Origin: Crocosphaera subtropica ATCC 51142
GTDB lineage: Bacteria > Cyanobacteriota > Cyanobacteriia > Cyanobacteriales > Microcystaceae
Direction of reading: 5' to 3'
DNA: 32,000 nucleotides
Assembly (NCBI RefSeq): GCF_000017845.1
Contig: NC_010546.1
Coordinates: 720,001 to 752,000, forward strand
In this document: piece by piece, positions 3,522 to 29,304 of the stretch
Layout of the letters: each line of letters starts with the position of its first letter
Numbering within the stretch: position 1 is the stretch's first letter
The notes under the pieces: model-generated
The model's database searches: none
What the model was told of the DNA's origin: nothing
Seen by the model: the letters and a program-made list of their open reading frames with translations, nothing else
Position numbers and translations under genes: made by a program

Positions 3522-3537
3522 AGAATGTTCTACTGAT

Positions 3538-11118: not shown

Positions 11119-11238
11119 AAAATAATTAAATTTTACCAATTAATCGATAAATCTTTTCAATCAAAATAGAAAGATTGTTTAATAAATTTAATTATTAGCA
11201 CGAAGTTTATCATCGATAAAAAAAAACTATCAATCACT

Positions 11239-12102: not shown

Positions 12103-14160
12103 TTGTCCTTGAAAGGTAAATTTAACAAAATAACAACAATGTCTTCTTGTCTGGCAGACTATACCCAAGCACGGGGATCATCTTCTCCAGAAGACTCTCA
12201 AAACAAACTAGCCTCAAGTGAAAAAAGTCGCGTTCGTCGTTCGGCAGCCATGATCGGCTTAGCTATTTCTATGGGCGCAACCGGAATGTTATTGAGCCAA
12301 GACAAAGCAGCAATGGCAGCTAATGCTGTAACGGCGAATACAGCTATTCCGAGTCTTCCAAATCTTTCTGATCTTCAAACTAAAGATAGTCGACTAGCTC
12401 CTTTAGCCCTTAAACATAAGGTAGAAGTGGGCGATACCATTGCTCAACTGGCATATAACTATCAAGTGAAACCAGAGGCGATCGCTGCAATCAATAATCT
12501 GACTATCGCAGCTGAACTCAAGCCAGGGGAAACCATCAAAATTCCTTCTGTAAAGGACTCAGTTGAGAAAATTACCCCCAAAAGCTCTCCAGAAACTAGC
12601 CCTCAAAATAAGAATGTTGGCAGAAAATCAGTCAACACCTCTCTTGATCACCTTAGAGAAACCCGTAAGCGTCTCCAAGATAGCTTAGCAGAACTCAAAA
12701 CCGAAGAAGCGAGAAGCACTGGAGAAGGGGAAACCATCGCCGATGTTAGTCAACCCCTAAAGCAGTCGCAAGAGCCAGCAACTCTAGCTGAGATTGAAAA
12801 AGTTGAAGTAGCTCAAGCCATTGAGATTCCTGTATTCAGCCCTGAAAATGAACAGGAAACTGGGGCGATCAAGGAAGAACAAGAAGAATATGCTTCCCTA
12901 AAAGGGTCTATCTTGGAAGAGAATGAGCCATTAGACCTTCCTGTTGTTCCCTCTCTCGAACCACAAACCACCGCTAAGATCGAATTCAATCAACCCACTC
13001 CTATCAATGTCATTCCTGCAAAAGAGGAAACCGAACCCTCAGAAAGTCGTCAACCTATTGATTTGACAACCCCTGAGCAAACCTCTTTTATCCCCCCAAG
13101 ACAACCGATTGTTCCGACACCAACCATCAGAGCCACTGAAAAAAGCTACCGTGTTCGTCCGGGTGACACCCTCAACAGTATTGCCCGTCGTCATGGGATC
13201 TCTACCCAAGAATTAATTCGCGCCAACAGAATTACCAATGCCAATTTAATTCGGGTTAATCAGACCTTGATGATTCCTCAACAAGAGACTATCGCTAAAG
13301 CTCAATCGACTCAACGAAGCACTTTACCCTCTGTATTTGAGGAGTTACGCTCGCAAACTCAGTCTTCTAGAAGCTTGCTTTCTAGCCGTGAAACTGAACA
13401 AGTCGAAATCCAAATTTCCACCGCTCAACAGTCCCATACAGACAAGTTAAAAGCTGATATCGTCAGTTTACAAAAAGATTACGGCCAACCAGAATCAGAG
13501 ATTTCCCTAGATCAACCCCGTCCTCGAATCTCCAATAAAACCGTGGTAGGGGAGGCCTTAAACCCTGAATGGGCAAGCGATCGCCAAGCAATTACTTCAC
13601 CTCAACAAGCGATCGAAGAACGGTTAAATACCAAAAAGCCCGAATTAATTAGTGCTGCACCTAGTGACCCCAGTATTTACAACAACGCCTTTGAGATCCC
13701 TGTCGGAACCGCTGTCGGTCCAAATCTTCCCGGAATATCTAACCCAGATGACTATCTTCCCGATGCTCCAATGAAATTTACTGGTCATATCTGGCCCAGT
13801 AAAGGGGTGATCACCTCTGGGTTTGGTCGTCGTTGGGGCAGAATGCACAAAGGCATTGATATCGCTGCTCCCGTGGGAACACCGATTATGGCTTCAGCCC
13901 CTGGTGAAGTGATCAGCGCAGGCTGGAATTCGGGCGGTTACGGCAATTTAGTTAAAGTTCGTCACCCTGATGGTAGCGTTACCTTATACGCTCACAACAG
14001 CCGTATTTTAGTGCGTCGTGGTCAAAAAGTAGAGCAGGGTCAGCAAATTGCTGAAATGGGTAGCACTGGTTATAGCACCGGTCCTCACCTTCATTATGAA
14101 ATCCATCCCAACGGTAGAGGAGCCCAGAATCCCATGGCTTTTTTACCTAAGAATCGCTAA
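12103..14160 (+). CDS. LysM-domain M23 family peptidoglycan endopeptidase
   Basis: Signal/TM AAMIGLAISMGATGMLLSQDKAAMA; two LysM repeats (HKVEVGDTIAQLAYNYQV...IKIP and YRVRPGDTLNSIARRHGIS...LMIP). The C-terminal M23 domain has HKGIDIAAPVGTPI and GSTGYSTGPHLHYEI. The start is uncertain: AGGAGG at 12097-12102 favours the in-frame TTG at 12109, and ATG 12139 is also possible. Confidence 0.85.
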   Translation: MSLKGKFNKITTMSSCLADYTQARGSSSPEDSQNKLASSEKSRVRRSAAMIGLAISMGATGMLLSQDKAAMAANAVTANTAIPSLPNLSDLQTKDSRLAPLALKHKVEVGDTIAQLAYNYQVKPEAIAAINNLTIAAELKPGETIKIPSVKDSVEKITPKSSPETSPQNKNVGRKSVNTSLDHLRETRKRLQDSLAELKTEEARSTGEGETIADVSQPLKQSQEPATLAEIEKVEVAQAIEIPVFSPENEQETGAIKEEQEEYASLKGSILEENEPLDLPVVPSLEPQTTAKIEFNQPTPINVIPAKEETEPSESRQPIDLTTPEQTSFIPPRQPIVPTPTIRATEKSYRVRPGDTLNSIARRHGISTQELIRANRITNANLIRVNQTLMIPQQETIAKAQSTQRSTLPSVFEELRSQTQSSRSLLSSRETEQVEIQISTAQQSHTDKLKADIVSLQKDYGQPESEISLDQPRPRISNKTVVGEALNPEWASDRQAITSPQQAIEERLNTKKPELISAAPSDPSIYNNAFEIPVGTAVGPNLPGISNPDDYLPDAPMKFTGHIWPSKGVITSGFGRRWGRMHKGIDIAAPVGTPIMASAPGEVISAGWNSGGYGNLVKVRHPDGSVTLYAHNSRILVRRGQKVEQGQQIAEMGSTGYSTGPHLHYEIHPNGRGAQNPMAFLPKNR

Positions 14161-14198: not shown

Positions 14199-14234
14199 AA
14201 AATCAGAGAAGTTTTTTCTTCTCTGATTTTTTTT
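14199..14234 (+). terminator. Rho-independent terminator after the M23 peptidase gene
   Basis: AAAATCAGAGAAG (14199-14211), loop TTTTTT, CTTCTCTGATTTT (14218-14230), running into a T tract that ends at 14234. Confidence 0.65.
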
Positions 14235-14292
14235 GTAATAAGGTAGACATTGGATAATTTTTATTCTATTATGACAAAGGTGCAAAAATAAT

Positions 14293-14366
14293 GGCTCGGT
14301 AGCTCAGTTGGTTAGAGCAGGGGACTCATAAGCCCAAGGTCGGCAGTTCAAATCTGCCCCGAGCCA
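14293..14366 (+). tRNA. tRNA with CAU anticodon (elongator Met or lysidine-modified Ile2), copy 1
   Basis: Hand-folded cloverleaf: GGCTCGG TA GCTC AGTTGGTTA GAGC A GGGGA CTCATAA GCCCA AGGTC GGCAG TTCAAAT CTGCC CCGAGCC A. G1-C72 is paired, so it is not an initiator. No CCA is encoded. Confidence 0.9.
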
Positions 14367-14483
14367 TTTGAAGGTAAAGCATTGAAAACCAGATGTATAA
14401 GGCGATTCGAGCAATTAGATGGCTTCTGAAGTTATCAAGATTGTTAAAATTTGTTACGGTTAACTACCACCTTTGACTATCAA
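14293..14483 (+). repeat. Left ~190-bp direct repeat (attL region): tRNA + diverged spacer + conserved 24-mer
   Basis: Matches 25885-26074: the tRNA is identical, the following ~95 bp are alignable but diverged, and then TTAACTACCACCTTTGACTATCAA is identical (14460-14483 and 26051-26074). Confidence 0.8.
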
Positions 14484-14546
14484 ATGACTATCATTCAGTT
14501 ATGAGTTTGGTTAGAACTTAGGTATTGATAGTCAGGAGTTAGAATA

Positions 14547-15755
14547 GTGGCTAAAGTATCGGTCAAAAGCAAAGGTTCTCATGGTACGGTTGGCGTTGAA
14601 TCGTTTAGAGGTAAGTTACGTCTCAGATTACCTAGACATCTGTATGATGGTAAACAAAAATACTTATCGCTTGGTTTAGACGATACGTCAGAAAATCGTC
14701 AAATTGCTGAAGCTAAAAAAAGAGAAATCGAGTCAGATATAGCTAAAGATTTAGTCGTTAATGGTACTTTTGATCTAACTTTAGCTAAATATCGTCCACA
14801 GACTCATTTAAAACTTGTTCAGTCGATCCAGGTTCATCATAAAACGGAAGAACAGGTACTTTTAAGTGATTTGTGGAATAAATATACAGAATTTAAGAGT
14901 AGTCAGGTAGAAAAAACTACTTTAATTCGAGATTATGGAAAAATTGCTAAAAGAATCGCTAAATTACCGACACAAGATATTAACGAGGCGGTTGCAATTA
15001 GAGATTATCTATTGAAAGTTTATGCTCCTGAAACAGCTAAAAGAACATTAAAGCAGTTAAACGCTTGTTGTAATTGGGCGATGCGTTCTAAACTCATTAC
15101 ATCTAATCCGTTTGATGGAATGGCAAGCGACATTAAGAGTAAGAAAACTAGCAAAACATCTAGAAAACCATTTACACAGGATGAAAGAGATGTAATTATT
15201 CAAGCTTTTGAAGAAAATATCTACTGTTCCAAGTATTCTCGTGTTAATCACTCTTATTATGCACCCTATGTTAAGTTTCTGTTTTTAACGGGATGCAGAC
15301 CAGAAGAAGCGATCGCATTACAGTGGAAACATATTGAGAAAAATTACATTAACTTTTGTGAGGCAGTGGCGACGGATTTAAGAATTCGTAAATCTACCAA
15401 AACTCATGAATCACGCCATTTTCCGATTAATCGACAATTACAAGCTTTTTTAGCTGAAATTAAACCTGAAAATGCTTCTAATGATGACTTAGTATTTCCT
15501 AGTACAACAGGAATTGAAATAGATGCTCATAACTTTCTCAATCGTATTTGGAAACCAGTAGTAGAAGCATTAGTCAAGGAAGGTAAGCTTAAGCAGTATT
15601 TACCCCAATATAATTGCCGACACACTTTTATAACGATGGCACTAGAGAAAGGTGTAACAGTGGTGCAAGTCGCTAAATGGGTGGGGAATAGTCCAGAAAT
15701 TATAATGAAGCATTATGCAGGTACGATTCGACAGGTACAAGTGCCAGAATTTTAA
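14547..15755 (+). CDS. Tyrosine recombinase / phage-type integrase
   Basis: GTG start 8 nt after AGGAG (14534-14538). Catalytic-domain motifs LTGCRPEEAIAL (Arg), CRHTFITMALEKG (His-x-x-Arg region) and IIMKHYAG (Tyr). It lies next to the tRNA/att repeat. Confidence 0.9.
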   Translation: MAKVSVKSKGSHGTVGVESFRGKLRLRLPRHLYDGKQKYLSLGLDDTSENRQIAEAKKREIESDIAKDLVVNGTFDLTLAKYRPQTHLKLVQSIQVHHKTEEQVLLSDLWNKYTEFKSSQVEKTTLIRDYGKIAKRIAKLPTQDINEAVAIRDYLLKVYAPETAKRTLKQLNACCNWAMRSKLITSNPFDGMASDIKSKKTSKTSRKPFTQDERDVIIQAFEENIYCSKYSRVNHSYYAPYVKFLFLTGCRPEEAIALQWKHIEKNYINFCEAVATDLRIRKSTKTHESRHFPINRQLQAFLAEIKPENASNDDLVFPSTTGIEIDAHNFLNRIWKPVVEALVKEGKLKQYLPQYNCRHTFITMALEKGVTVVQVAKWVGNSPEIIMKHYAGTIRQVQVPEF

Positions 15756-16102
15756 GTTATTGTTTCTAGATGTATCATTTGTACCAGTACCCATTAAGGT
15801 TAGGACATTGTTGTTTTCTATCTTTTCTATTCCCTTGTGTTAACATCTATATGTCCTACCTATTTTATTTAGTGCTATAGCTATTTTGGATTATAGATAT
15901 GAAGTTAGACTAAATTGATGAATATTGAGATAGATTTTAATGTTAAAACTCTTGCAGTTAATCCATTAATTCTTTATCAGTGATTTGTAAAATAAAAGCT
16001 TTACAAAAATTAATAAATATGTCGAATATAGATTATTGAATGACTTTAGCTATTTTAAAAATATTTTTTTGTCAGATTCTTGACAATAACCTGATGTTTA
16101 GG

Positions 16103-16120
16103 TTACATTTATAAATGTAA
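16103..16120. promoter_or_regulatory. Perfect 18-bp palindrome TTACATTTATAAATGTAA, candidate operator upstream of the RHH gene
   Basis: The sequence equals its own reverse complement. A third half-site TTTACA at 16125-16130 forms a second inverted repeat with TGTAAA at 16115-16120. A TTGACA hexamer lies at 16080-16085, and the RHH-like ORF starts about 40 bp downstream. Confidence 0.45.
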
Positions 16121-16161
16121 ATTGTTTACAATATAAAAGTAAGAAGTAGAAATAAAAATAT

Positions 16162-16368
16162 ATGATTTTAGAAGGTAAAGATAAAATGATAGAAAGAGAA
16201 TCAAATACAATGGACTCTATAATAAGTTTTAGAATATTAGACAAAGATAAAACTAAATTAATGGATATTCTTGATCAAAAAAATATAACTCTTTCAAAAT
16301 TGATGAGAAATTTAATTAGAAAAGAAATTGCTAATTATTTTGTTGTGAAAAATAGTAATCAGGTTTGA
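16162..16368 (+). CDS. Small ribbon-helix-helix (CopG/Arc-like) DNA-binding protein, putative island regulator
   Basis: DSIISFRILDKDKTKLMDILDQKNITLSKLMRNLIRKEI fits a beta-strand/helix/helix RHH pattern. Alternative starts at 16186 and 16210. This is inferred from the pattern only. Confidence 0.45.
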   Translation: MILEGKDKMIERESNTMDSIISFRILDKDKTKLMDILDQKNITLSKLMRNLIRKEIANYFVVKNSNQV

Positions 16369-16645
16369 TTTCTAGATTTAATTTGTAGCTAGGGTTAAAA
16401 TCAAGCTTTAATACAGGTTTCTAGAACTTATTAACCTGAAAATGGTATGATTTCTTTTATTATATCAATCAATTTTTAAGACTTTTTCTTATTCTTATTA
16501 AAATCATTAAAAATGACTTTAACAGAGTACCTTTATCATGGTTTCTAAAATTCAAAATGAATAAATTAGAAACTAATTATCCGTGATGTAAACGACGGAA
16601 TACCAGTATCGCAGTAAATAATAGATAGATTGGAACACATTAAAA

Positions 16646-18844
16646 ATGAAAGAAATAACAATAACAATGAAAGATCATAATATTGTTCAAATGATAGAAA
16701 ACTTAAAAGATAATGATTTTCCTAATAATTGGCGTTTTATTCCAGTTGATAAAAATAAAGCTCCTATGACAACTAAAACATTTCAAGCAACAGGTTGGAC
16801 AAAGAAAGAAGCTTTAACTAAACAGGAAATAATAAGAGAACTCTGTGATTATGATGTTAATGCCGTTGGTTTAGCATTAGGTAAGCATAGCGTTAATGTT
16901 GTGGCAATTGATCATGATGGTGAAAGTTGTGACAAGTTAATTGAAGAATTAACAGGTTTATCTCTTAAAGAAGCTTTACCATCAACAGTTGCTTTTTCTA
17001 GTGGTCGAACAGGACGGTATCAAAAATTATATTCTGTATCGGAAGATATATTAAATCAATTAACCAATAAACAAATTAAAACAGGTGAAAAAGATGAAGA
17101 TGGAAAGAGTGAACAGCTTGAATTTCGAGTCAATGGATATTCAATAATAATGGGTTTTCACCCAAAAACTCAAAGCTATAGTTATCATTGGTTAGATGGA
17201 TGTTCACCACAAGAGATTGATATTACTCCATTACCTGAATGGTGGCTAAATATATGGCTAAATAGCGAAAAAACCAATAAAAAGGAGAAAAAGAAATCGT
17301 TAAGTAAAATTAATGATATTCCTAACGATTTAAGTTCAATTATATCTAAATGTCAAAATCTTTTGAGTCAACTTAAACCTTTCAGATGTGACAATTATGA
17401 TGATTGGAATAGAGTTGGCATGGCTTTACATCATGAAGCTGGTGACGATCCTATATTAAGTGAATTACTGTTAGATTTATGGACAAACTGGAGTCAAAAT
17501 TCTAATAAATTCAAAGACGGCGAATGTGCTACAAAATGGCAAAGTTTCGATAGTAATAAGGATAATACTGTTACATTAGGTACTTTAGTAGAATGGGCAA
17601 AAGAGGATAGTAATTTACCTCAGCAAAATTCTAAAAATACATTAGATGATGAACGTCAAGAATTCTATCAAATGCTTGATGATATTGATAAAATTTATGA
17701 GGAAGAAGATTATGGATTTCAGCAAGTTCTTTCAAGAAAGATAGCAAAAAAATATGGATATAATTCTAATATTAGCCAAATGTTAAAGGATTATTGGAAT
17801 GCAAATCCTAATCTACTTAAAAGTGACTTTATTGATATAAAAAACTATGTAAAAGATACACCTAGAATTGATTATTTAATTAGTAATCTTTTACCCACTG
17901 TGGGGTTAGGCATTTTTTATGGTGAATCCAATATGGGTAAAACAACTTTGTTATATAGTTGGATGATTGCAATTGCAACAGGTAAAGACTGGAATGGATT
18001 TAATACAATACAAGGTAAGTGTTTAATTTACCAGTTAGAGGAATCTCAGCCTGTTACCTCACAACGATTATCCAAAGCGGTTGATAGTCTGCCAGATAAT
18101 GCAATTTTAATCAAAAAAATTTGGAATATTGCTCAAATCCATTCTTTAAAGAAAGATGTAGCGAAGCATCAACCTAAATTGGTAATTATTGATAGTTTGA
18201 AAGCTGCTAGTGCAGGAACAAATAATGATGAAAATGACAGTCGTTTTGCTGATTCATTATATCAACTGCACCAAATATCTGAATCTTATCAATGTGCCAT
18301 TTTTGTAATTCATCATTGTAACAGTAATGGTGGTTTGCGTGGTTCTACTGCTATTAAAGCTGCGGTAGATACTGTTATGAAGTTTGGACGGGATGAAAAG
18401 GATGAATTACCTGAATTACAACGTCTTCTTACCATTGAAAAGTCACGAGCTTTAGATGAAAATCCAACACTTCTTTTAGAAGGTAGTGAGGATAATGTAC
18501 TCAGTTGGACATATTTAGGAACGTTCGATGGGAATAAAAAAGGAAAAAATTGGAGTAATTCAGTTGAATGTCAGCAATTTATTGATCATCATCCTAATCA
18601 GAAGTTCACAGTTGATGAGGTGTTGAATGGATTAAAAGAGAAAATTACCAACCGAGATACGGTGAAGAAGACTCTCAATCGTTTAGTTAATAAGGGTAAA
18701 ATTAACAAAGATGATAGCTTTGCGAAAAAACCTCTGTATTTTAGTAAAAAGTGTCCCAATATCAGTAGCCAGAGCGGTTCAAATGCAGATATAGCAAGTG
18801 TTTCGGCTATCAAGACAGTTACGGGACAGCCAGAAGAGGTGTAA
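16646..18844 (+). CDS. Replication protein: bifunctional primase-polymerase (PrimPol) + PriCT-2-like + RecA/DnaB-like (AAA_25-type) ATPase + C-terminal wHTH-like tail
   Basis: PrimPol N-terminus (NWRFIPVDKNKAPMT, AVGLALG..., VVAIDHDGE acidic motif). PriCT-like segment (YDDWNRVGMALHHEAGDDP...LWTNWSQNSNKF...KWQSF). Walker A GESNMGKTTLL and Walker B-like LVIIDSLK. C-terminal FTVDEVLNGLKEKITNRDTVKKTLNRLVNKGKI. Confidence 0.85.
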   Translation: MKEITITMKDHNIVQMIENLKDNDFPNNWRFIPVDKNKAPMTTKTFQATGWTKKEALTKQEIIRELCDYDVNAVGLALGKHSVNVVAIDHDGESCDKLIEELTGLSLKEALPSTVAFSSGRTGRYQKLYSVSEDILNQLTNKQIKTGEKDEDGKSEQLEFRVNGYSIIMGFHPKTQSYSYHWLDGCSPQEIDITPLPEWWLNIWLNSEKTNKKEKKKSLSKINDIPNDLSSIISKCQNLLSQLKPFRCDNYDDWNRVGMALHHEAGDDPILSELLLDLWTNWSQNSNKFKDGECATKWQSFDSNKDNTVTLGTLVEWAKEDSNLPQQNSKNTLDDERQEFYQMLDDIDKIYEEEDYGFQQVLSRKIAKKYGYNSNISQMLKDYWNANPNLLKSDFIDIKNYVKDTPRIDYLISNLLPTVGLGIFYGESNMGKTTLLYSWMIAIATGKDWNGFNTIQGKCLIYQLEESQPVTSQRLSKAVDSLPDNAILIKKIWNIAQIHSLKKDVAKHQPKLVIIDSLKAASAGTNNDENDSRFADSLYQLHQISESYQCAIFVIHHCNSNGGLRGSTAIKAAVDTVMKFGRDEKDELPELQRLLTIEKSRALDENPTLLLEGSEDNVLSWTYLGTFDGNKKGKNWSNSVECQQFIDHHPNQKFTVDEVLNGLKEKITNRDTVKKTLNRLVNKGKINKDDSFAKKPLYFSKKCPNISSQSGSNADIASVSAIKTVTGQPEEV

Positions 18845-19070
18845 ATAGTCGAACGTATCAAACCCATACACAGTCTATTATTCAAGCATTTTCAGCATCA
18901 GGATAATAACGGGACAGTGAATGCTGTAACAGGACAGTTGAAGCGTCCCACCATTTGGGGGGGAGATGCAATTGATAATTATGGGGACAAAATCAAAATG
19001 TCCTGATAGTTGTTCTGCTTCAAAAACGTTACAGGATAAGGATTCTAGCGTTATCGGGACATCAGGACAT
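18818..19070. repeat. Iteron-like array of (G)TTA(C/T)-GGGACA(G/T) motifs, candidate origin of replication
   Basis: GTTACGGGACAG 18818-18829; TAACGGGACAG 18907-18917; TAACAGGACAG 18927-18937; GGGGACAA 18983-18990; TCAGGACAT on the minus strand 18998-19006; GTTACAGGATA about 19028-19038; CGGGACAT 19055-19062; CAGGACAT 19063-19070. Confidence 0.45.
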
Positions 19071-19727
19071 GATCTATAGATAAATGAAGATGAAAAGTTT
19101 TATAGAGTAAATACAATTTACGTTTAGCGATCGCAGAATTGGTGAGAAGTAGGGGTTTAGAGCCTTTAAGTAGCTATTCTGATGATAAAAAAATAGAACA
19201 AAAAACTATAATTTTTTTAGTCAACAAATAGATAAAGAAAATAATGAATTAAAATCTTAAAATAATAAACCACATGAATAATTTAAACTTCTACTTTGAA
19301 TATCCATGTAGGTTAATGAGAAATATAATTGTTATACTCGATTAAATAAAACCATGTATATCCACTTTACATATCACAAAAAAACTGATACCCTAAAAAG
19401 ATTGGGGGGGTACTCTACTAACCTATGATTACAACACAAACAAAAGTAAAGTATGTTAACCTTAATTGATGGTGATCAGTGCTAGGCGTTAGGATAATTG
19501 TTAATAGATCAGTATTGTTAGAATCACTTATTTGAAAACACAAGTTTTTTTGATATGGTTTCTAAACTCAATAAAAAATAGTTCTTGATATAGGTATAGG
19601 TAATGGTAACGAATACATAGGTTTTGATTATTATTACTAATTACCGATTATTTTCTGATGAACAATTAGTGAGTTATTTTGAATCAAAAATCAAGCATCT
19701 CTAATGATTAGAAAATTTGCTTAGTGA

Positions 19728-19761
19728 TTTTACTATTACTTTTACTTTACTTTTACTTTAC
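19728..19761. repeat. Short tandem repeat TTTTACTATTAC / TTTTACTTTAC x2
   Basis: Read directly from the sequence: three adjacent 11-12 bp units in the non-coding gap of the island. Confidence 0.7.
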
Positions 19762-20361
19762 TATCTGTGTTATTAACTTAAAATTATAATCGAGAAATTG
19801 GATTGTAAATTTTCTTACCTATCAGACCAGTAACGGTGTGATAAGTAAGATTTATGGGGAAAGACAAATGGTTAAAATTCATTTTACAAAGAAAGTAATC
19901 TGTAGTATTTTCTTCTCCTCAAAACAACAAATGATGCGATCGCATGGTTTGACCAGTATGATGAGATAGAAATGGAAGAAGGAATGATTGATATTCTTGA
20001 AGCTTGCACGAGCTTTCTCAATTTAATCAATTATTGGCGCAATAAATTACGGTAAATAGCGATAATTTACCATAAATTGATAGATTAAGTCGAGAATCAT
20101 TGAATTTCTCGGCTTTTCCTCTATTACTATGATTAAGCAGAATAACGCAAAAATTGGATCGTTCGTTCCGCAATTTTAATAAAACTTTACAAAAGAAAAA
20201 GATGGGAAATTTGTGGAAGTTTCACAACGCTTGTTGGTGCAAATGAAAATGGTATTAGGATGATTTTGAGTTGTTTTAAAAATTCTTATCTAACATTAAT
20301 GATAGTTAACATCAGAATTTGGGAACACTATACAGAGAAACACTGATGGCAGAAACAATTT

Positions 20362-23300
20362 ATGTCAAATTTAGTTGGTGAACTCATTGCTGGTAAATAT
20401 GATCTATTAACCCAACTGGGAGAAGGGGGAAGTAGTGTAGTATATCTGGCTAAAAAGCTAGGGACTCAAGAACGTTATGCGATTAAAACGCTTTCTACCG
20501 ATGAAAAGAATGCCATAAAACTTTTAGAAAGAGAAACGCAAACTTTAAAACGTCTTAATCATCCTAATATCGTCAAGTTTATTGAAGAAGGTTATGAAGA
20601 ACGGCACAAACTTGTTTACTTAGTCTTAGAGCATTTAGATGGTCAAGACATAAAAACTTATTTTGATAGTAACATTGATTTGTCAACCAAACTTAATATA
20701 TTTTTGCAAATTATTGAAGGGATCAGTTATGCCCATTCTAAAAATATAATCCATAGAGATATTAAACCAGATAATATTCAAATTGTGGATACTGGTGAGC
20801 ATCCAGATGCTAAAATTTTAGATTTCGGCATAGCAATTATCACTACTACAATTCTAACGAATACGATTAGAAGTTATCATACTCCCTTGTTTTCTGCTCC
20901 TGAACAAATTACGCTTGACGGGGTTTCAAGGAATTCGGATATTTATTCTTTAGGAATGACATTTTTATATTTGTTATCAACTCAAGAAGCCAGAATTAAT
21001 TTTCAAGATGAACAAAATAAAAGCATACTTTATCAGTCTGCTCAAGAAAGCTTAAATAACATTAGTAATTCTGAAAAGTTAATAACTATTCTGACAAGTG
21101 CTACAGATATAGATCGTGAAAAGCGTCCTAAGATAGACAAACTTAGAAAAGTTCTTTGTGACTTTCAGGAAGAATTAGCTGATTCCATTCCTGTTGTCTT
21201 TAATATTACTCGTAAAGTAGAACAAGAGATTAATGATCAATATAACTATCAAAATGATCTTTTAAAAATCAAGAATCATCTTAAATCCTTAATTGAAGAA
21301 AATAATAATTCAATATACATCAAAAAAAGTCCCGATAAATATCAAAAGAGAGAAGATTCAATAACGGTAGAAATAGGGTTAGAAACTTCGCAAAAATTTT
21401 ATCGTGGATTTATTAACCTGCATAATCATAATTCTACTCAAATAACGATTATCTATGAGGTTTCACAGCCTCCTCATATACAGGAAAAAATATTTGAAAA
21501 TGGATTGTCTGTAAAAGTTAATCCCATTATTGAAATTGGCTCTGGACTTAAAAGAAAAACAGATTTATCAGAATTAATCAAGCAAATTTTACAGAAAGAA
21601 CAACAAATTGAAAATGAAATAAAAAATAACAAAATACTAAAAGCAACTTTTGAGCAATGGCAGTCTGTCATTGATATTGAAAAACAAATTATTAGTGACA
21701 GAAAGGAGACTTTTCAATATAAAGAAAAATTTCATGATCAGCAAAGACAAATGTTGATTGTAACCTTAACACAACCTATTTCAATCGAAGATTTTGAAAA
21801 AATCACATCTCCCCCTTTACCTGTTACCATATCTGTTAAAAAAGTTTCAGCATCTAATCGTCAAAAAGAAATACAATGGTCAATTGGAGATATTACTGAT
21901 GGAAATAAATCCCCCAATGGTGAATCAATTGACAAATTACACATTAGCATCGGGGATTTTTGTGATCCTGAAATTATAGAATCTATCTTAGATAAAGGAA
22001 AAATTGAAACAAATTTTAAAGCACAAGAATCTGAAATTGAAAAACGGCGTAAAGCCTTAAGAGAAATTCGATATGGTGATTCTGAAAATCAGAATTTGTC
22101 TAAGGTGATAGCCGATCCATATAATGTTAAGTTAATTGAACCTATTTTAATTCATCGCTTTTTTAATGAACAATTAGATGAATCACAGAAAAAAGCAGTA
22201 TCTAAGGCATTAGCTACTGAAGATATTTTTTTAATTCAGGGTCCGCCAGGAACAGGTAAAACTTCTGTTATTACAGAAATAATTTTACAAATTCTAAGTC
22301 GTTATCCTAATGATAAAATTTTAATTTCTTCTCAATCTAATGTCGCTGTAGATAATGTTTTAACTCGACTCGCTCGTGTTGAAGATAAAGAAATTAAGTG
22401 TATTAGAATTGGGAGAGAAGAGAAAATTGAAGAAGAAGCTAGACAATTTGAAATAGATAAAGCTATCATAACATGGCAAAATTCTATTACTTCTAAATCT
22501 TTAGCCTATTGGCAAGAGTATCAACAAAAAAATGAGGAACTGTTATCAGGTAATCAAAAAATAGCACAATTGGAAGATGTAAAAAATAAAAATCAAGAGT
22601 TACAAGTTTTGGCTAGTCGATTAACCCAAACAATTGCTAGATTTAATTCAGAGTTGACTATCTATAAAGATAACATAGCATCAGCCGACTTCTCTGATAT
22701 TGCTGTAGAATTAATTTATGAAAAGCTAGAACTAGAACAAAAAATCCTAAAAGTGGTTGAACAATATACGACTAAATTTGGTATAGAGTACCCTGAGCAA
22801 AAACTGCTTTCAACTTGGATTGATGAAGAGGATAAAGTCTTAAAAAGTATTTTAGGTGATAATCAGGAGAATTATCAAAAATTTATTGGATTAGAAAAAC
22901 TAAGTCAAGAGTGGAATGAAAAGCTTAAAAGAAAACAACAAAGTTTAATGCCTTTATTTATAGATGAAATAGATGTTGTTGGTGCAACTTGTTTAGGTGT
23001 AGCAAGATTTCAAGATCGTAATTTTGATTGGGTAATTATCGATGAAGCAGGAAGATCAACTGCACCAGAAACTTTTGTGCCGATGTCAAGAGGGAAAAAA
23101 ATTATCCTAGTTGGAGATCATCGACAATTACCACCAATGATTGATAAAGAGTTACAGGAAAGAGCGTTAAGTGAACAGGAAATTCAAAAAATAATTTTGG
23201 AAAGAAGTTTATTTGAATATCTCTATGAACAGTTGCCAAAAACGAATAAAATAACCTTAAATAATCAGTATAGAATGCACCCTCATATTGGTGATTTAGT

Positions 23301-23928
23301 GAGTGAATTATTCTACGATGGTCAAGTAGCTAGTAAATTGGTTAGCATTCAGGAAAAAGCACATAATATAACAATATTTGATAAAAGCATTTATTGGATA
23401 TCAACCAGTGATGTAGAAGAGGAAATATCTAAGGAAAGAGAAAATGGAAAAAGTAGGAGTAATCCTTATGAAGCAAAAATTATTAAAGAAGTTTTACTAA
23501 AAATTCAAAAAGATTGTGAATCTAACAACTTATATAAAAAGGTTGGTGTTATTTCAGCTTACCGTTCACAAATTAGTATTTTAGAATCTGCCATTGCCCC
23601 TAATAATAAAGAATTATGGAAAAATCTGCATATTATAATTCACACAGTTGATGCTTTTCAAGGAGGAGAATGTGAAATTATTGTCTACGATTTGGTTAGA
23701 AGTAATCGTCAGAAAAAATTAGGATTTACCTCTGATGATCGAAGATTAAACGTGGCTTTATCCCGTGCCAAGCAACTATTAATTATCGTGGGTAATGATA
23801 ATATGGCTTATCAAGGGAAAACGCCTAATAATCTAGCCAATCCTTTTAAACCATTGATAGAATATATTGATAGTAATAATAATTCTTGTTCTCGATTAAC
23901 ATCCAGTGCGTTTTCTAAAGAGGTGTAA
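20362..23928 (+). CDS. Ser/Thr protein kinase fused to Upf1-like SF1 helicase (COG1112-type; AAA_11/AAA_12); type I Mokosh-like helicase component
   Basis: Hanks kinase motifs: GEGGSSVVY, AIK (K42), HRDIKPDN (D133), DFG, SAPE. Helicase motifs: Walker A GPPGTGKT (aa 627-634, nt 22240-22263), VIIDEAGRS, ILVGDHRQLPP, NNQYRMHPHIGD, ISAYRSQ, VDAFQGGECEIIV, LNVALSRAKQLLIIVGN. Confidence 0.9.
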   Translation: MSNLVGELIAGKYDLLTQLGEGGSSVVYLAKKLGTQERYAIKTLSTDEKNAIKLLERETQTLKRLNHPNIVKFIEEGYEERHKLVYLVLEHLDGQDIKTYFDSNIDLSTKLNIFLQIIEGISYAHSKNIIHRDIKPDNIQIVDTGEHPDAKILDFGIAIITTTILTNTIRSYHTPLFSAPEQITLDGVSRNSDIYSLGMTFLYLLSTQEARINFQDEQNKSILYQSAQESLNNISNSEKLITILTSATDIDREKRPKIDKLRKVLCDFQEELADSIPVVFNITRKVEQEINDQYNYQNDLLKIKNHLKSLIEENNNSIYIKKSPDKYQKREDSITVEIGLETSQKFYRGFINLHNHNSTQITIIYEVSQPPHIQEKIFENGLSVKVNPIIEIGSGLKRKTDLSELIKQILQKEQQIENEIKNNKILKATFEQWQSVIDIEKQIISDRKETFQYKEKFHDQQRQMLIVTLTQPISIEDFEKITSPPLPVTISVKKVSASNRQKEIQWSIGDITDGNKSPNGESIDKLHISIGDFCDPEIIESILDKGKIETNFKAQESEIEKRRKALREIRYGDSENQNLSKVIADPYNVKLIEPILIHRFFNEQLDESQKKAVSKALATEDIFLIQGPPGTGKTSVITEIILQILSRYPNDKILISSQSNVAVDNVLTRLARVEDKEIKCIRIGREEKIEEEARQFEIDKAIITWQNSITSKSLAYWQEYQQKNEELLSGNQKIAQLEDVKNKNQELQVLASRLTQTIARFNSELTIYKDNIASADFSDIAVELIYEKLELEQKILKVVEQYTTKFGIEYPEQKLLSTWIDEEDKVLKSILGDNQENYQKFIGLEKLSQEWNEKLKRKQQSLMPLFIDEIDVVGATCLGVARFQDRNFDWVIIDEAGRSTAPETFVPMSRGKKIILVGDHRQLPPMIDKELQERALSEQEIQKIILERSLFEYLYEQLPKTNKITLNNQYRMHPHIGDLVSELFYDGQVASKLVSIQEKAHNITIFDKSIYWISTSDVEEEISKERENGKSRSNPYEAKIIKEVLLKIQKDCESNNLYKKVGVISAYRSQISILESAIAPNNKELWKNLHIIIHTVDAFQGGECEIIVYDLVRSNRQKKLGFTSDDRRLNVALSRAKQLLIIVGNDNMAYQGKTPNNLANPFKPLIEYIDSNNNSCSRLTSSAFSKEV

Positions 23929-23930
23929 TT

Positions 23931-25358
23931 ATGGCTAATCAAATCAAAGATTTTGAAAGCAAGATTCGTAAATATCACTCACTGCCTGAAGCTATAGTGA
24001 TTGATTGTAAACGAATAGGTTATCCTTTTTATGTTTTGTATCTTGATGTAACTTATTTAGTACAACGAGAATTAGAACTACTAGAAGAATTTGTCATGAA
24101 ATGTATTGATAATGGATTAAATAAATTGGAAAAAATTGCTAGTTTCTTGGGTATGGATAATAATGTAGTTGAAAAGACTTTATCAGAATTAATTTCAAAA
24201 GATTTGATTAAAAAAGAAGATATATTCAAGTTAACTGAGAAAGGTTCAGATGCTTTAAAACAACAAAAAGAATTAGCTCCTGTTTCGGATACTAAAACTT
24301 TTTATTTAGATGCTTTAAGTGGAAAGTTAATGGATTATTTTTACCTGAGTAAATTTGATAGTAAAAATAATCAAAATACTTCTATTGGTAAAATTATTAA
24401 AAAGCCACGAAAAGATCATGTAGAAGATATCATTAGTTATTTCGAGGATATTGAAAAATATTTGCAAAATCCTAATAATCCCCATGTTGAACTTATACAG
24501 GTAAATAGAATAGAAAAAGTGTATCCTGAATGGCATGAAATTTCATTGGTTTTATATAAAAGTAATCCTAAAGATCAAGAAATAGAGTATGAAATTTTCT
24601 CTAGAGATTCTATCCAAAAAGACTATAGAGAAACTATCGAAAAAATATATGCTGAAGGTAAAAAAATACTTGATCCTATTTTTCAAGATATAAAGCAGGA
24701 TAATACTACTAATGAATCATTTAATAAAATAGTTGAAAGCATCAATGATGAGGATGTTAGAAATGTAGAACAAATCAGTATAAAAATCAGTTCTCTCAGT
24801 GATCCAGATTCTTTTATAGAAACTCAAAATGACTCAGTTAAGAAAGAAAAATCTAAACTTGAGCAACAACTAAAAGAAATCAAAAATCAAACGAGAATTT
24901 CAGAGGTAGTTCATACTTATGAAATCAGAGAATATCTTTTAAAAGCCTTAAAAGAAGCTAAAAATAGAGTAATGATAGTTTCTCCTTGGATAAAAGGAAA
25001 TGTGGTTAATCAACAATTTATATCAACCTTAGAAGATAGTTTAAAACGAAAAGTAAAAGTGTATATTATATATGGAATAAAAGGATCAAGTTTTCAAAAT
25101 GATAATTGGTCAATTAAAAAATTAGAAAATTTAAGTGATAATTATCGTAATTTAAAATTTGAAAAAACAAAAAATAGTCATCGTAAACAAATTGTTTGTG
25201 ATGATAAATTTGCTATAGTAACTAGCTTTAATTTTTTATCATTTAGAGCAGATCCTAATTTAACATATAGAGATGAATTGGGAGTGGTTTTAAGAGATAA
25301 ACAAACTATTGAAGACTTATTTAACAGTGGGCTTGGTTTAATTCGCAGTGCTGAATAA
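23931..25358 (+). CDS. PLD-superfamily (single HKD motif) nuclease with N-terminal wHTH-like domain; type I Mokosh-like nuclease component
   Basis: The ATG lies 2 nt after the upstream stop, with GAGGTG at about 23918-23923 as the SD. HKD motif HRKQIVCDD (H417, nt 25179). PLD-fold flanks RVMIVSPWI and FAIVTSFNFLS. N-terminal LEEFVMKCIDNGLNKLEKIASFLGMDNNVVEKTLSELISKDLIKK resembles a winged helix. Confidence 0.85.
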   Translation: MANQIKDFESKIRKYHSLPEAIVIDCKRIGYPFYVLYLDVTYLVQRELELLEEFVMKCIDNGLNKLEKIASFLGMDNNVVEKTLSELISKDLIKKEDIFKLTEKGSDALKQQKELAPVSDTKTFYLDALSGKLMDYFYLSKFDSKNNQNTSIGKIIKKPRKDHVEDIISYFEDIEKYLQNPNNPHVELIQVNRIEKVYPEWHEISLVLYKSNPKDQEIEYEIFSRDSIQKDYRETIEKIYAEGKKILDPIFQDIKQDNTTNESFNKIVESINDEDVRNVEQISIKISSLSDPDSFIETQNDSVKKEKSKLEQQLKEIKNQTRISEVVHTYEIREYLLKALKEAKNRVMIVSPWIKGNVVNQQFISTLEDSLKRKVKVYIIYGIKGSSFQNDNWSIKKLENLSDNYRNLKFEKTKNSHRKQIVCDDKFAIVTSFNFLSFRADPNLTYRDELGVVLRDKQTIEDLFNSGLGLIRSAE

Positions 25359-25629
25359 TTGATGAAGTCTAATAGCAACATCATCAACAAAACAACTATT
25401 AGAAACACACTAATTTAGTAATGTTTACTCTTGACAAAATTAGTATTTGCTTTTGGCACGATTCTACTAGCCTATGTTGCAATGAAGTGTGTTAAATTTA
25501 GCGATCGCATTAATCACCCGATCCACCAATACCGTTAAAATGCGCTATGAAGCTTAGATAACCACTTGAATGAATAGATCAGATAAGTTGGTTAGAAACA
25601 AGCTGATCACTTGAAAATAGTACATTAGC

Positions 25630-25836
25630 ATGAATTCTGAAGCCAGCAGTAGTAATGAAGAAAAAAAAGTAATTGTGGCAATTTTGAACGATACCACAGA
25701 GCGATGGGATTATTTAACATTCGATACACGAGAAGAAGCGAGACAAGCAATTAACAAAGCTAGAAATGAAGGTAAAGCTGCGGTATTCTATAAAGATGAA
25801 AATAGCGATGATCAAAGTGCGCCACCAGAGCTATGA
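25630..25836 (+). CDS. Small acidic hypothetical protein at the right end of the island
   Basis: 68-aa ORF with no recognisable motif. Its TGA stop (25834-25836) is the first three bases of the TGACTATCAA repeat. Coding status is uncertain. Confidence 0.35.
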   Translation: MNSEASSSNEEKKVIVAILNDTTERWDYLTFDTREEARQAINKARNEGKAAVFYKDENSDDQSAPPEL

Positions 25837-25884
25837 CTATCAAATGACTATCAACGTCAATGACTATTTTCTAAAATGTAGTAA

Positions 25885-25958
25885 GGCTCGGTAGCTCAGT
25901 TGGTTAGAGCAGGGGACTCATAAGCCCAAGGTCGGCAGTTCAAATCTGCCCCGAGCCA
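25885..25958 (+). tRNA. tRNA with CAU anticodon, copy 2 (identical to 14293..14366)
   Basis: Base-for-base identical to copy 1 over all 74 nt. The 5' flanks of the two copies are unrelated. Confidence 0.9.
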
Positions 25959-26074
25959 TTTGAAATCAAAAATCGAAAACCAGATATATTAAGCAATTCA
26001 AGCAATTATATGACTTCTCAAGTTATGCAAGTTGTTAATAATTATTGAGTTTAACTACCACCTTTGACTATCAA
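25885..26074 (+). repeat. Right ~190-bp direct repeat (attR region)
   Basis: Partner of 14293-14483. It ends with TTAACTACCACCTTTGACTATCAA, followed by host sequence GGGTGATCGC. Confidence 0.8.
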
Positions 26075-26242
26075 GGGTGATCGCTCATTGATCTTGTTCA
26101 AGTCATATCACCTTTTGAGCCTTTGCCATTTCCCCCTAACTTACCAAAAAGATGAAATAATAGAGAAAAATCAATCAGCAATGTAATAAAATCAAACTGT
26201 ACCTGAGTTAAATTCTCTCAGTTGTCATTACCATTCACTACA

Positions 26243-26905
26243 ATGCAATATGAAATTCGATATAAACCAGCTTTTGCTGCTATCTTCGTCACCTTAGCTC
26301 CTGGTGAAAGCATCATAGCCGAAGCCGGAGCGATGGCCAGTATGGATGGCCGTTTATCCATGAAAACAAAATTATCTGGGGGGCTTTTTTCAGCCTTATT
26401 ACGAAAATTTTTAGGGGGCGAATCCCTATTTGTCAATGTCTTTAAAAATCAAACATCTCAAGCCTTAACTCTGGTTTTAACCCAATCAATCATAGGAGAT
26501 ATTGAATGCTTAGAGTTAAGCGGAAATGAAATGTGTTTTCAACCAGGAGCTTACATAGCTAGTAGTCCTAAAATTGACTTAGGGGTACGGTGGGCTGGTT
26601 TAGCCAGTTGGTTTGCAGGAGAAGGATTATTTAAGTTAAAAGTCAGTGGTCATGGGAAAGTCTTTTTTGGAGCTTACGGCGGTCTAAGTAAACAAACCAT
26701 TACAGGAGAATTTATTGTTGATAATAGCCATTTAGTGGCCTACAGTCCCGATATTTCCATGAGTATTGGCTTATCAGGAGGATTAATCAGTTCTATGACC
26801 TCTGGAGAAGGGTTAGTCAATCGTTTAAAAGGTCATGGAGTCATTTATCTGCAATCTCGAAGTGTTAGCGGTTTACTGGGATTTTTACGCCCTAAAGTGA
26901 AGTAA
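26243..26905 (+). CDS. AIM24 / TIGR00266 (DUF124) family protein, paralogue 1
   Basis: MQYEIRYKPAFA..., AGAMASMD, FLGGESLFVNVF, FAGEGLFKLKVSGHGKVFF, GEGLVNRLKGHGVIYLQS. The ORF track begins at TTG 26222; ATG 26243 matches the starts of the paralogues. Confidence 0.8.
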   Translation: MQYEIRYKPAFAAIFVTLAPGESIIAEAGAMASMDGRLSMKTKLSGGLFSALLRKFLGGESLFVNVFKNQTSQALTLVLTQSIIGDIECLELSGNEMCFQPGAYIASSPKIDLGVRWAGLASWFAGEGLFKLKVSGHGKVFFGAYGGLSKQTITGEFIVDNSHLVAYSPDISMSIGLSGGLISSMTSGEGLVNRLKGHGVIYLQSRSVSGLLGFLRPKVK

Positions 26906-26910
26906 TAATC

Positions 26911-27588
26911 ATGGATATTCAATTAATACATCAACCCGACAGTGCGATCGCTAAAGTGATCTTAAATGCCGGAGAGGAAATTGTCGCACAAGCTGGTTCA
27001 ATGGTGGCGATGAGTGGATTTATTAACACCAGTACCACCCTCAGACAAGGAAAAGGTGGGGGGATTATGGGAGGATTTAAACGAATATTAGGGGGTGAAT
27101 CTCTCTTTTTAAGTGTGTTTCGCTCCCCAACTGCAGAAGGAGAGGTTTTTCTTGCCCCTAGATTGATGGGTGATATCTTAGTGTATGAAATGCAAGGTCA
27201 AGAATTGGTAGTACAAGCAGCCTCTTATTTAGCCTCTGCTAATGATGTAGACCTCGATTTAGGGTTTCAAGGGATGAAATCTCTGTTTTCTGGGGAATCA
27301 ATTTTCTGGTTGAGTGTGACAGGATATGGACCAGTCATTTTAACTTCCTTTGGCGGCATTTATGAAATCGACGTGGATGGGGATTATGTGGTAGATACGG
27401 GTCATATTGTCGCTTTTGAAAAAACGTTAGATTTTCGCATTGATAAAGCTAATTCGAGTTGGCTAGGGGCATTTTTTGGGGGTGAAGGATTTATTTGTCG
27501 TTTTCATGGCAAGGGTAAAGTCTATTGTCAAACCCATAACCCCGGTGGTTTTGGTTCTATTGTTGGTTCTCAATTACCGCCTAAATAA
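26911..27588 (+). CDS. AIM24 / TIGR00266 (DUF124) family protein, paralogue 2
   Basis: AGSMVAMS, ILGGESLFLSVF, FSGESIFWLSVTGYGPVIL, GEGFICRFHGKGKVYCQT. It starts 5 nt after paralogue 1. Confidence 0.85.
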   Translation: MDIQLIHQPDSAIAKVILNAGEEIVAQAGSMVAMSGFINTSTTLRQGKGGGIMGGFKRILGGESLFLSVFRSPTAEGEVFLAPRLMGDILVYEMQGQELVVQAASYLASANDVDLDLGFQGMKSLFSGESIFWLSVTGYGPVILTSFGGIYEIDVDGDYVVDTGHIVAFEKTLDFRIDKANSSWLGAFFGGEGFICRFHGKGKVYCQTHNPGGFGSIVGSQLPPK

Positions 27589-27693
27589 GTACCTGGACAA
27601 AAATCAACGTTACTGTGAAGTGAGCAGCGAGCAGAGGAAGCAGGGAGAAGGGTTACAGCTTGTTTACATTTTTTAAGACAGTTGATTATATTC
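27587..27693 (+). repeat. MITE-like repeat copy (reference copy of the family)
   Basis: Both ends match inverted copies at 9213-9344 and 29305-29432. An internal short inverted repeat AATCAAC (27602-27608) / GTTGATT (27681-27687) is present. The element begins inside the TAA stop of paralogue 2. Confidence 0.7.
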
Positions 27694-27735
27694 ATGTCCA
27701 ACTATTTAGTTCTTTGTTATTTCAGGTAAATTTAG

Positions 27736-28434
27736 ATGTCAAACATTACTTATCAAATTGAACATTCTCCTGCTTATGCTTCGTTAATTCTTGATTTACG
27801 GCCTCAGCAAACTGTTTTAGTAGAAGCTTCGGCGATGGCTGCAATGGATACCTCTGTGAAAATGCAATCTAAGATTAGAGGAGGATTAATGAAAGGTGTG
27901 GGTCGAATGTTAGGGGGTGAATCTCTTTTTATTAATCAATTTACAGCAAAAAATGATTCAGGAAGAGTTTATGTTTCCCCTGGAGTGCCTGGGGATATCC
28001 AACACTATTCTATCGAGAATCATTGCGGTTTATTGGTTCAATCATCGGGGTTTGTTGCCTGTAGCGATACGGTACAAATAGATACCCAGTTTCAAGGATT
28101 CAAAGGTTTTTTTAGTGGAGAATCTTTATTTTTATTAAGAGTAACAGGGCGGGGAGATTTTTGGTTTAGTTCCTATGGGGCTATTTTAGAAGTTCCTGTT
28201 ACGAAAGATTATGTAGTTGATACCGGTTATGTCGTCGCTTTTGAAGATACCCTAAATTATAATGTAGAAATGATTGGCGGTTTATCTTTTAGAAATTTAA
28301 AAACAGGAATTTTAGGGGGTGAAGGATTAGTTTGTCGGTTTAGTGGCAAAGGTCGTCTCTGGATTCAAAGTCGTGCTATTTATCCCCTACTCAATTTTTT
28401 ACATCCCTTTCGACCGACTAAAAGTAGTAATTAA
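27736..28434 (+). CDS. AIM24 / TIGR00266 (DUF124) family protein, paralogue 3
   Basis: ASAMAAMD, MLGGESLFINQF, FSGESLFLLRVTGRGDFWF, GEGLVCRFSGKGRLWIQS. Confidence 0.85.
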   Translation: MSNITYQIEHSPAYASLILDLRPQQTVLVEASAMAAMDTSVKMQSKIRGGLMKGVGRMLGGESLFINQFTAKNDSGRVYVSPGVPGDIQHYSIENHCGLLVQSSGFVACSDTVQIDTQFQGFKGFFSGESLFLLRVTGRGDFWFSSYGAILEVPVTKDYVVDTGYVVAFEDTLNYNVEMIGGLSFRNLKTGILGGEGLVCRFSGKGRLWIQSRAIYPLLNFLHPFRPTKSSN

Positions 28435-28438
28435 AATT

Positions 28439-29239: not shown

Positions 29240-29304
29240 TAATTTTTGAGAAAGACAGAAAATAAATTCTTAACCAGTTACTAACCTGAGTTCGATATAA
29301 AAAA

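Follow-up and report, generated by a model that had tools for sequence, protein, structure and literature searches.

Two identical tRNA(CAU) genes stand in direct orientation on the chromosome of the cyanobacterium Crocosphaera subtropica ATCC 51142, and the question raised by this locus is what lies between them and how it came to be there. The stretch of DNA analysed, called here the window, comprises 32,000 nucleotides (NC_010546.1, positions 720,001 to 752,000), and all positions below are counted from its first letter. We consider it highly probable that the interval from about 14328 to 25919 (11,592 bp) is a tRNA-targeting integrative element of C. subtropica. It is ordinary in kind and carries a known defence system; what is unusual is its whole-tRNA attachment site, placed next to what is best read as the fossil arm of an earlier element. 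A previous sequence-only reading had already proposed an integrative island bounded by repeats with complete tRNAs, and this proposal is supported by arm motifs at both ends, by a family of related integrases at the same locus and by the right attachment site (attR) of a related element. Loci and contigs used for comparison are given as L numbers.

The repeats and the two tRNA(CAU) genes

14293-14366, forward strand: left tRNA(CAU) copy, core of the left attachment site (attL), with its host 5' flank and its synteny with the M23 peptidase gene kept in relatives
25885-25958, forward strand: right tRNA(CAU) copy, core of attR
14244-14272, forward strand: promoter-like site TAGACA-17-TATTAT upstream of the left tRNA, with 10/12 consensus matches only

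Both tRNA(CAU) genes of the window were called by ARAGORN and by Rfam, with 64.8 bits each. The base-for-base repetition reported for the 74-nt tRNA extends to an exact repeat of 80 nt, that is, the tRNA followed by TTTGAA (14293-14372 = 25885-25964), the two copies being 11,592 bp apart. Past this block the homology runs on to 14483 and 26074, reaching a total of about 190 bp. It was said to be diverged and to end in an identical 24-mer, and global alignment of the part after the block gave 22 differences in 112 columns and none in the last 24, which form the 24-mer TTAACTACCACCTTTGACTATCAA (14460-14483 and 26051-26074). Such a difference-free end would be unlikely if divergence were uniform (permutation P = 0.0024). 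The sequences 5' of the two copies, described as unrelated, gave no alignment with each other. The repeats had thus been described accurately to the base.

The left copy sits in its native context, since the order of the M23 gene and the tRNA(CAU) gene is conserved across relatives. The promoter-like site at 14244-14272 is host DNA outside the element and is preceded by a terminator-like hairpin of the M23 gene (14199-14230). Consensus scans, the only kind made here, revealed no comparable promoter-like site or hairpin upstream of the right copy.

The target is not an initiator tRNA, as positions 1 and 72 are paired, and the second tRNA-Met of L004, which is the initiator, is unrelated to it. 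It may be a Met or an Ile2 tRNA. The anticodon arm (14319-14336 and 25911-25928) has two stem pairs that are not of the Watson-Crick type, G27.A43 and A31.G39, and this arm, GGGGACTCATAAGCCCA, is identical in the copies of Leptolyngbya, Coleofasciculus, Gloeothece and Chroococcidiopsis. A permissive Rfam scan of the island returned only the tRNAs and one antisense hit below threshold; this hit, to the Plastid-ycf2 5'UTR family (E 0.09), may reflect a general likeness to tRNA.

The integrase and its putative arm-type sites

14547-15755, forward strand: tyrosine integrase with an N-terminal arm-DNA-binding domain (PF12167, Arm-DNA-bind_2, and PF00589; PHROG 1 integrase, 1e-46)
14367-14545, forward strand: integrase-proximal (P') arm, a spacer of about 105 bp followed by TTAACTAC at 14460, TGACTATCA at 14474 and 14485, and its inverted copy at 14526-14534
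25834-25868, forward strand: distal (P) arm, with TGACTATCA at 25834 and 25845 and TGACTATT at 25861

The integrase gene had been placed just inside the left repeat, and the open reading frame (ORF) found there indeed encodes a protein with Arm-DNA-bind_2 and Phage_integrase domains. It starts with GTG 180 bp after the left tRNA, on the same strand, and its product is 100% identical to Cy51472DRAFT_2979 of C. subtropica ATCC 51472.

Six exact copies of a nonamer, TGACTATCA, were counted in the 32-kb window, each of them at one of the two ends of the interval. Three copies, one of them inverted, lie between the left tRNA and the integrase start and two lie just before the right tRNA, while the sixth (26065) falls within the right-hand 24-mer. 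To these can be added a slightly degenerate seventh arm-type site, TGACTATT, and the first half of the 24-mer, TTAACTAC, which is another degenerate copy. The layout of the P' arm is repeated upstream of the integrase homologues of L116, L117, L120 and L121, and sequence comparison of these four loci showed that both the motif and its spacing are conserved. These motifs are likely to be arm sites of the integrase.

The inverted site of the P' arm, TGATAGTCA (in the region 14526-14546), overlaps the Shine-Dalgarno sequence AGGAG of the integrase gene, 12 nt before the GTG. An inverted ATAGTCA is conserved at the same position before the integrase in L116, L117, L118, L120 and L121. This placement, kept in five relatives, suggests that the integrase may regulate its own synthesis through this site.

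Probable position of the strand exchange

14325-14331, forward strand: CTCATAA of the anticodon loop, where strand exchange in attL is predicted by analogy with L120

L120, from Coleofasciculus FACHB-542, is the one other member of the family with both ends intact. Its far end carries a partial tRNA, and the identity between its attL and attR starts 2 nt ahead of the anticodon stem and continues until 13 nt beyond the 3' end of the tRNA. Counted from the first base of the anticodon, the P-arm sites stand at -84/-73/-57 in the window and at -83/-72/-56 in L120. Because the identity in L120 starts at the anticodon arm and the arm spacing is conserved to 1 bp, strands are most likely exchanged in the anticodon loop, at 14325-14331 and 25917-25923. 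An anticodon-loop class of tRNA integration was reportedly described by Williams in 2002, and the partial-tRNA pattern is classical for exchange in the loop.

We also tried the identical 24-mer as the recombination core. The element would then run from 14484 to 26074, bring its own tRNA(CAU) and 110 bp along at its right end, and be inserted 117 bp past the host tRNA. No other block after the diverged spacer is perfectly identical, and the 24-mer lies exactly where the homology ends, as would be expected of a crossover core. Nevertheless it consists of two direct arm-type motifs, TTAACTAC and TTTGACTAT, and is devoid of the inverted-repeat symmetry of a core. Moreover the attL/attR identity of L120 stays within the tRNA region, from anticodon stem to 3' end, and stops short of the arm sites, and the P-arm-to-anticodon distance, conserved to 1 bp, would be inexplicable with a core 150 bp further on. 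On this geometry and on the comparison with L120 we rejected the 24-mer as core, regarding such a placement as quite improbable, and take it for a pair of arm-type sites.

With a crossover anywhere in the repeat, the excised circle would contain one complete tRNA. The arm sites at 25834-25868 as well as those at 14474-14534 must be part of the element. The anticodon-loop exchange can be put into the following scheme. The N-terminal domain of the integrase would bind TGACTATCA and its variants on both sides of the attachment site, and the enzyme would exchange strands in the anticodon loop of the tRNA(CAU) located downstream of the M23 gene. In the excised circle the terminal gene orf68b, the P arm, one complete tRNA, the spacer, the P' arm and the integrase gene (int) would be contiguous, and the chromosome would keep one intact tRNA. 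The helicase-linked PrimPol protein of the element, which is related to plasmid Rep proteins, could replicate the circle, and the cargo would be a complete type I Mokosh system with a predicted role against phages.

The M23-tRNA(CAU) locus in related cyanobacteria

The order GCS2, SpoU methylase, LysM/M23 peptidase, tRNA(CAU) of the left flank is conserved, being kept in Crocosphaera, Cyanothece, diatom endosymbionts, Prochloron, Coleofasciculus, Leptolyngbya and Chroococcidiopsis. A scan of genome contigs for the M23 peptidase returned 80 loci, and the 22 top loci were scanned with ARAGORN: a single tRNA(CAU) follows M23 in 20 of them. The DNA after this tRNA differs in every species representative inspected, and in none of the relatives inspected was the window element seen at this place.

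These counts bear on the idea that the two tRNA copies are a host segmental duplication or native paralogues and that the genes between them were gathered in unrelated events. That the repeat spans the whole gene together with downstream DNA would agree with a duplication. On the other hand, relatives carry one tRNA(CAU) after M23, arm sites and the conserved terminal gene of the family lie within 32 bp ahead of the right copy, and behind the left copy come the matching arm sites and the integrase, so that the interval is bounded exactly in the manner of an attL/attR pair. We hold a host duplication to be extremely unlikely.

The integrase belongs to a family with a preference for tRNA genes. 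In 15 of 19 metagenome loci a tRNA (Phe, Leu, Ser, Gly, Val or Met) was found on the same strand 115-230 bp upstream of the integrase, and the remaining 4 loci, in which none was found, are short or partial contigs. Homologues with 55-75% identity adjoin tRNA(CAU). In L061 (Leptolyngbya), L116, L120, L121-L124 (Coleofasciculus and relatives) and L127/L128 (Chroococcidiopsis) this tRNA stands beside M23; another gene precedes it in L117 (a CBS-domain gene) and in L125 (Gloeothece, ClpB). Members of the subfamily with at least 66% identity have in common the TTTGACTAT arm motif, the inverted copy ahead of the integrase start and a terminal protein homologous to the 68-aa one of the window. L120 and L121 have both host flanks in common, M23 on the left and a glycogen-debranching enzyme gene on the right, and enclose different cargo of 9 kb and 3 kb, respectively; L116, with the same left flank, has kept almost only the integrase. 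As the shared flanks enclose 9 kb, 3 kb or almost no cargo, this comparative evidence indicates that the integrase family moves cargo into and out of the M23-tRNA(CAU) site. No tRNA repeat was found within reach in L104, L098 and L096, attR was not detectable in L116, L117, L121, L125 and L128, and no relatives of the integrase were found in a viral contig collection.

The closest integrase homologue outside the species (L118:1-1245, 89%, from a metagenome-assembled genome of Microcystaceae) has no tRNA upstream. Its contig opens with an ORF of 344 aa, the end of which replaces most of the P' arm and leaves the inverted arm site alone; this ORF may be an insertion into attL. In L098, the DNA that follows a related integrase at tRNA-Gly (11188-13650) has dense direct repeats of 8 bp (TCTGTAAC-like) and of 22 bp (TGCATGGTTTCGGGAGA...), which are iteron-like.

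Defence genes or fragments of them were found directly after the M23-adjacent tRNA(CAU) in five relatives:

L013:12208-20793: type I restriction-modification system
L004:12593-13709: DRT UG34 and NERD-helicase fragments
L010:11167-14169: type II methyltransferase and HerA-like ATPase
L011:12503-12850: AriA/GajA-like fragment
L001:10603-11565: MkoB-like PLD protein

In Crocosphaera and its relatives the M23-adjacent tRNA(CAU) site therefore has the character of a defence hotspot, and the defence genes, together with the variable content after the tRNA, fit the additive, tRNA-seeded island model of tycheposons.

The DNA beyond the right copy and the complete tRNA

25959-26074, forward strand: host-side homologue of the P' arm, a spacer and two arm-type sites, ending abruptly at 26074

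A crossover within the tRNA would place the 116 bp that follow the right copy on the host side. The same sequence of about 110 bp, with 83-86% identity, follows the M23-adjacent tRNA in the Crocosphaera loci L006 and L007, in neither of which an integrase is found alongside; L006 retains GACTATCATTCA. In the closer host relatives (L001-L004, L008, L012) the homology stops at the end of the tRNA. The segment is best read as a fossil attL, that is, the P' arm of an earlier related element, and the present element would have integrated into a tRNA already followed by this arm. A perfect 24-mer within a stretch of 75-80% identity is compatible with the two arms having diverged at a time when integrase binding still imposed selection on both. 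The fossils were also used in an attempt to tell which spacer is native, and were uninformative, both copies of the window being about equally distant from L006 and L007 (83-86%).

With this placement of the crossover the 5' half of the right tRNA must come from the element, and this half is not needed to restore the target. The sequence-only reading had called a complete tRNA copy unusual, and the intact relative L120 agrees, its attR being of the classical partial-tRNA kind: between arm sites and core the DNA of L120 is not a tRNA 5' half (by eye, 10 of 19 positions match), whereas the window has a perfect half. A literature search for precedents of a complete-tRNA attachment site in the circle (attP) found nothing usable. 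The complete tRNA might have been kept by selection, as a working tRNA expressed from the circle or by read-through from orf68b, or the homology of about 190 bp might serve as a RecA-dependent route; we give these ideas a low probability. If the RecA route were true, entry and exit could occur independently of the integrase and the fossil arms of relatives would act as landing pads. In the excised circle orf68b would stand directly upstream of attP and int. A related and equally speculative possibility is that orf68b and int form one transcription unit across attP in the circle only, which would act as an excision-dependent switch.

Predicted replication and defence genes and the terminal gene

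16162-16368, forward strand: 68-aa ribbon-helix-helix-like protein (DUF6290/RelB-like; Pfam below the curated cut-off, E 2e-4)
16646-18844, forward strand: replication protein with Prim-Pol, PriCT-2 and AAA_25 (RepA/DnaB-like ATPase) domains, matching PHROG primase/helicase families
18845-20361, no strand: stretch of 1.5 kb with no ORF above 48 aa, with TTTTACTTTAC three times in tandem at 19728-19762 and two HIP1 sites
20362-23928, forward strand: MkoA, 1188 aa, Ser/Thr kinase and Upf1-like superfamily 1 helicase (Pfam Pkinase, AAA_11/AAA_12)
23931-25358, forward strand: MkoB, 475 aa, winged helix-turn-helix (wHTH) region and PLD-family nuclease (PADLOC 5.3e-75; Pfam PLDc_2)
25630-25836, forward strand: orf68b (cce_0728), conserved 68-aa protein at the right end of the element, with its stop codon inside the first P-arm site

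All ORFs of the element are intact, with catalytic motifs present. The two genes before orf68b form what was identified as a complete type I Mokosh operon, and an anti-phage role is predicted for them. MkoA was matched by its PADLOC profile at 1.3e-220, residues 8-1177 covering profile positions 6-1106 of 1112, and its translation contains the motifs HRDIKPDN, DFG, GPPGTGKT and DEAG. The mkoB gene starts 2 nt past the stop codon of mkoA, and HRKQIVCD in its product corresponds to the HxK(x)4D motif. The pair agrees with the definition of type I, the kinase-helicase gene, a separate PLD gene, and the ATP-binding and PLD motifs all being present.

The replication protein resembles, over the N-terminal 45% of its length, Rep and DUF3987 proteins of small cyanobacterial plasmids (30-34% identity), and its matches to phage proteins are weaker. 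The ribbon-helix-helix-like protein is likely a regulator, and a DUF6290 gene occupies the same position in L120. The ORF-poor stretch after the replication gene, in which no Rfam match was found, may be an origin or a decayed gene.

The product of orf68b is 100% identical to cce_0728 of ATCC 51142, and homologues occupy the same position in L117 (11420-11620), L120 (18703-18903) and L123 (10001-10189). A small acidic protein of this type stands at the integrase-distal end of every member of the subfamily, the stop codon of its gene lying within the first P-arm site, and its invariant features are W26, T30, E36-A37, GKAAV, Y54 and PP. Neither Pfam nor PADLOC gave a hit to it and PHROGs gave one weak hit; its AlphaFold model (predicted local distance difference test score 74.5) has a beta-beta-alpha-beta arrangement, for which no fold match was found in the PDB at E <= 0.001. 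A literature search gave no mention of cce_0723 to cce_0728.

The gene content raises the question of whether the element is a phage satellite, similar to P4, to the phage-inducible chromosomal islands (PICI) or to tycheposons, which would depend on a helper cyanophage for its transfer and for which Mokosh would be accessory cargo. With its size of about 11.6 kb, and with modules in the order integrase, small regulator, primase-helicase, accessory genes, the element resembles satellites and PICI-like tycheposons, and defence cargo is common on satellites. However, searches of the six ORFs with Pfam, PHROGs and PADLOC recognised no gene for a capsid, a terminase, packaging redirection or helper sensing, small unannotated ORFs being possible. 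Moreover the integrase has no matches in the viral contig collection and the replication protein is closer to plasmid Rep than to phage proteins. A satellite nature is in our opinion distinctly unlikely.

Composition and present mobility

The interior had been judged by eye to be more AT-rich than its flanks and its proteins richer in Asn, Lys and Ile. The computed values agree: the guanine plus cytosine (GC) content is 0.304 in the island and 0.368 in the flanks, GC at third codon positions is 0.14-0.25 in the cargo and 0.22-0.38 in the flanks, and the tetranucleotide distance to the flanks is 0.24-0.30 in the island and 0.12-0.21 outside. The Asn+Lys+Ile fraction is 0.25-0.28 in PrimPol, MkoA and MkoB, 0.20-0.35 over the six island proteins and 0.09-0.24 in the flanking proteins. 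The left flank is, at 1-8 kb, in parts nearly as AT-rich as the island. The shift is real but modest.

As to HIP1, the observation that the PrimPol gene and the Mokosh operon have no site while the CheA-like and M23 genes have two each stands, but an island-wide depletion does not: there are 4 sites in the island (15309, 19127, 19936 and 25501), all in the integrase gene or in non-coding parts, which gives 0.35/kb against 0.44/kb outside (binomial p = 0.78).

Several points weigh against the reading as a mobile element, and they are best considered together with the alternative that it is a fixed and immobile remnant. The repeats would then be historical scars, and the remnant could be lost through homologous recombination between them alone. 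Both sequenced strains of C. subtropica (ATCC 51142 and 51472) carry the element, which could be fixed. Neither an empty site, nor a circular junction, nor an element-free strain was found among the sequences compared. The arrangement M23, tRNA, AIM24 that the sequence-only reading had named as the empty site failed to appear, AIM24 lying within 10 kb of M23 in no relative scanned, and look-ups with AIM24b and SpoU gave only Logan contigs identical to the window. The Logan contigs from SRR26036484-89 all match the window exactly, and their k=31 assemblies cannot resolve an 80-nt repeat. No excisionase was identified in the element, the position of the crossover rests on one comparison, with L120, plus the geometry of the arms, and the scheme does not account for the perfect Crocosphaera-type tRNA 5' half of the element. 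The host-like density of HIP1, expected for a family confined to cyanobacteria, means that the element is not recently foreign to them. In addition, several related elements are clearly locked in place: the P arm and attR are gone from L121-L124, L116 consists of the integrase only, and L117 is without attR.

The HIP1 sites inside the element and its presence in both strains would suit an immobile remnant. Nevertheless all ORFs with their catalytic motifs are intact, five exact copies of the arm site persist in the two arms and one more in the adjacent fossil arm, and the 80-nt core repeat is perfect, while decay would be expected to blur arm sites and core first. We therefore regard an immobile remnant as unlikely, though the least so among the alternatives weighed here, and favour an integrative element that may still be mobile.

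Neighbouring genes

To the right of the element (26222-29239) an M48 peptidase gene comes after three tandem paralogues of the AIM24 family (227, 225 and 232 aa). Two intergenic segments, each about 125 nt long (27583-27708 and 29284-29405), are 78-79% identical to L001:5445-5575 and L007:739-860 (opposite strand) and may represent a small dispersed repeat. The left flank contains a chemotaxis-like cluster (108-9143), among whose products are a HAMP/MCP-signal protein (3717-6209) and, as a hybrid kinase, a CheA-like protein (6288-9143); Hpt, HATPase, CheW and receiver domains of the latter were marked by Pfam on the identical Logan contig L090.

Comparison with known systems

The present analysis documents a cyanobacteria-wide family of arm-binding integrases for which the M23-adjacent tRNA(CAU) is a landing site. 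For ATCC 51142, a model diazotroph, it points to a complete and possibly mobile Mokosh system, which should be useful for annotation and for studies of cyanophage resistance, and the element is a candidate tool for site-specific integration. The full-length tRNA copy is also a caution for island-finding software that seeks tRNA fragments. The current understanding of how such elements work is unchanged.

Classical tRNA islands and prophages with lambda-type, arm-binding integrases share with the window element an integrase that adjoins an intact tRNA and is co-oriented with it, direct repeats containing tRNA sequence, arm sites on both sides and variable cargo at the site. They differ in that their far repeat contains only the part 3' of the crossover, whereas here it is a complete tRNA, and the homology in the window extends for 116 bp past the tRNA, covering a copy of the arm that the element itself carries.

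P4-like and PICI satellites are likewise small integrative elements with an integrase, a primase-helicase and anti-phage cargo, but the window element has no detected genes for helper exploitation or packaging.

Type I Mokosh consists of a helicase gene with a Ser/Thr kinase and a separate PLD nuclease gene, and its defence depends on the ATP-binding and PLD active sites (bioRxiv 10.1101/2022.05.11.491447). The operon of the window is alike in its two genes, a COG1112/Upf1-like helicase-kinase and a PLD nuclease, with full-length PADLOC matches and intact motifs. It differs in being a cyanobacterial homologue with a predicted defence function and in the N-terminal wHTH region of MkoB.

The tycheposons of Prochlorococcus are seeded at tRNA genes, one of three Met-CAT tRNAs being a target, and are flanked by partial tRNAs (bioRxiv 10.1101/2020.12.28.424599). 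Like them, the window element is cyanobacterial and tRNA-seeded and combines a tyrosine recombinase, a primase/helicase module and cargo, the likeness being one of architecture only; moreover, in both cases degenerate remnants gather next to the tRNA and the tRNA-proximal region is the most variable. Tycheposons are defined by a particular recombinase clade; they differ in their partial-tRNA flanks and in their nutrient-acquisition cargo, which contrasts with the defence cargo found here, and the host of the window element is a large-genome diazotroph, unlike Prochlorococcus.

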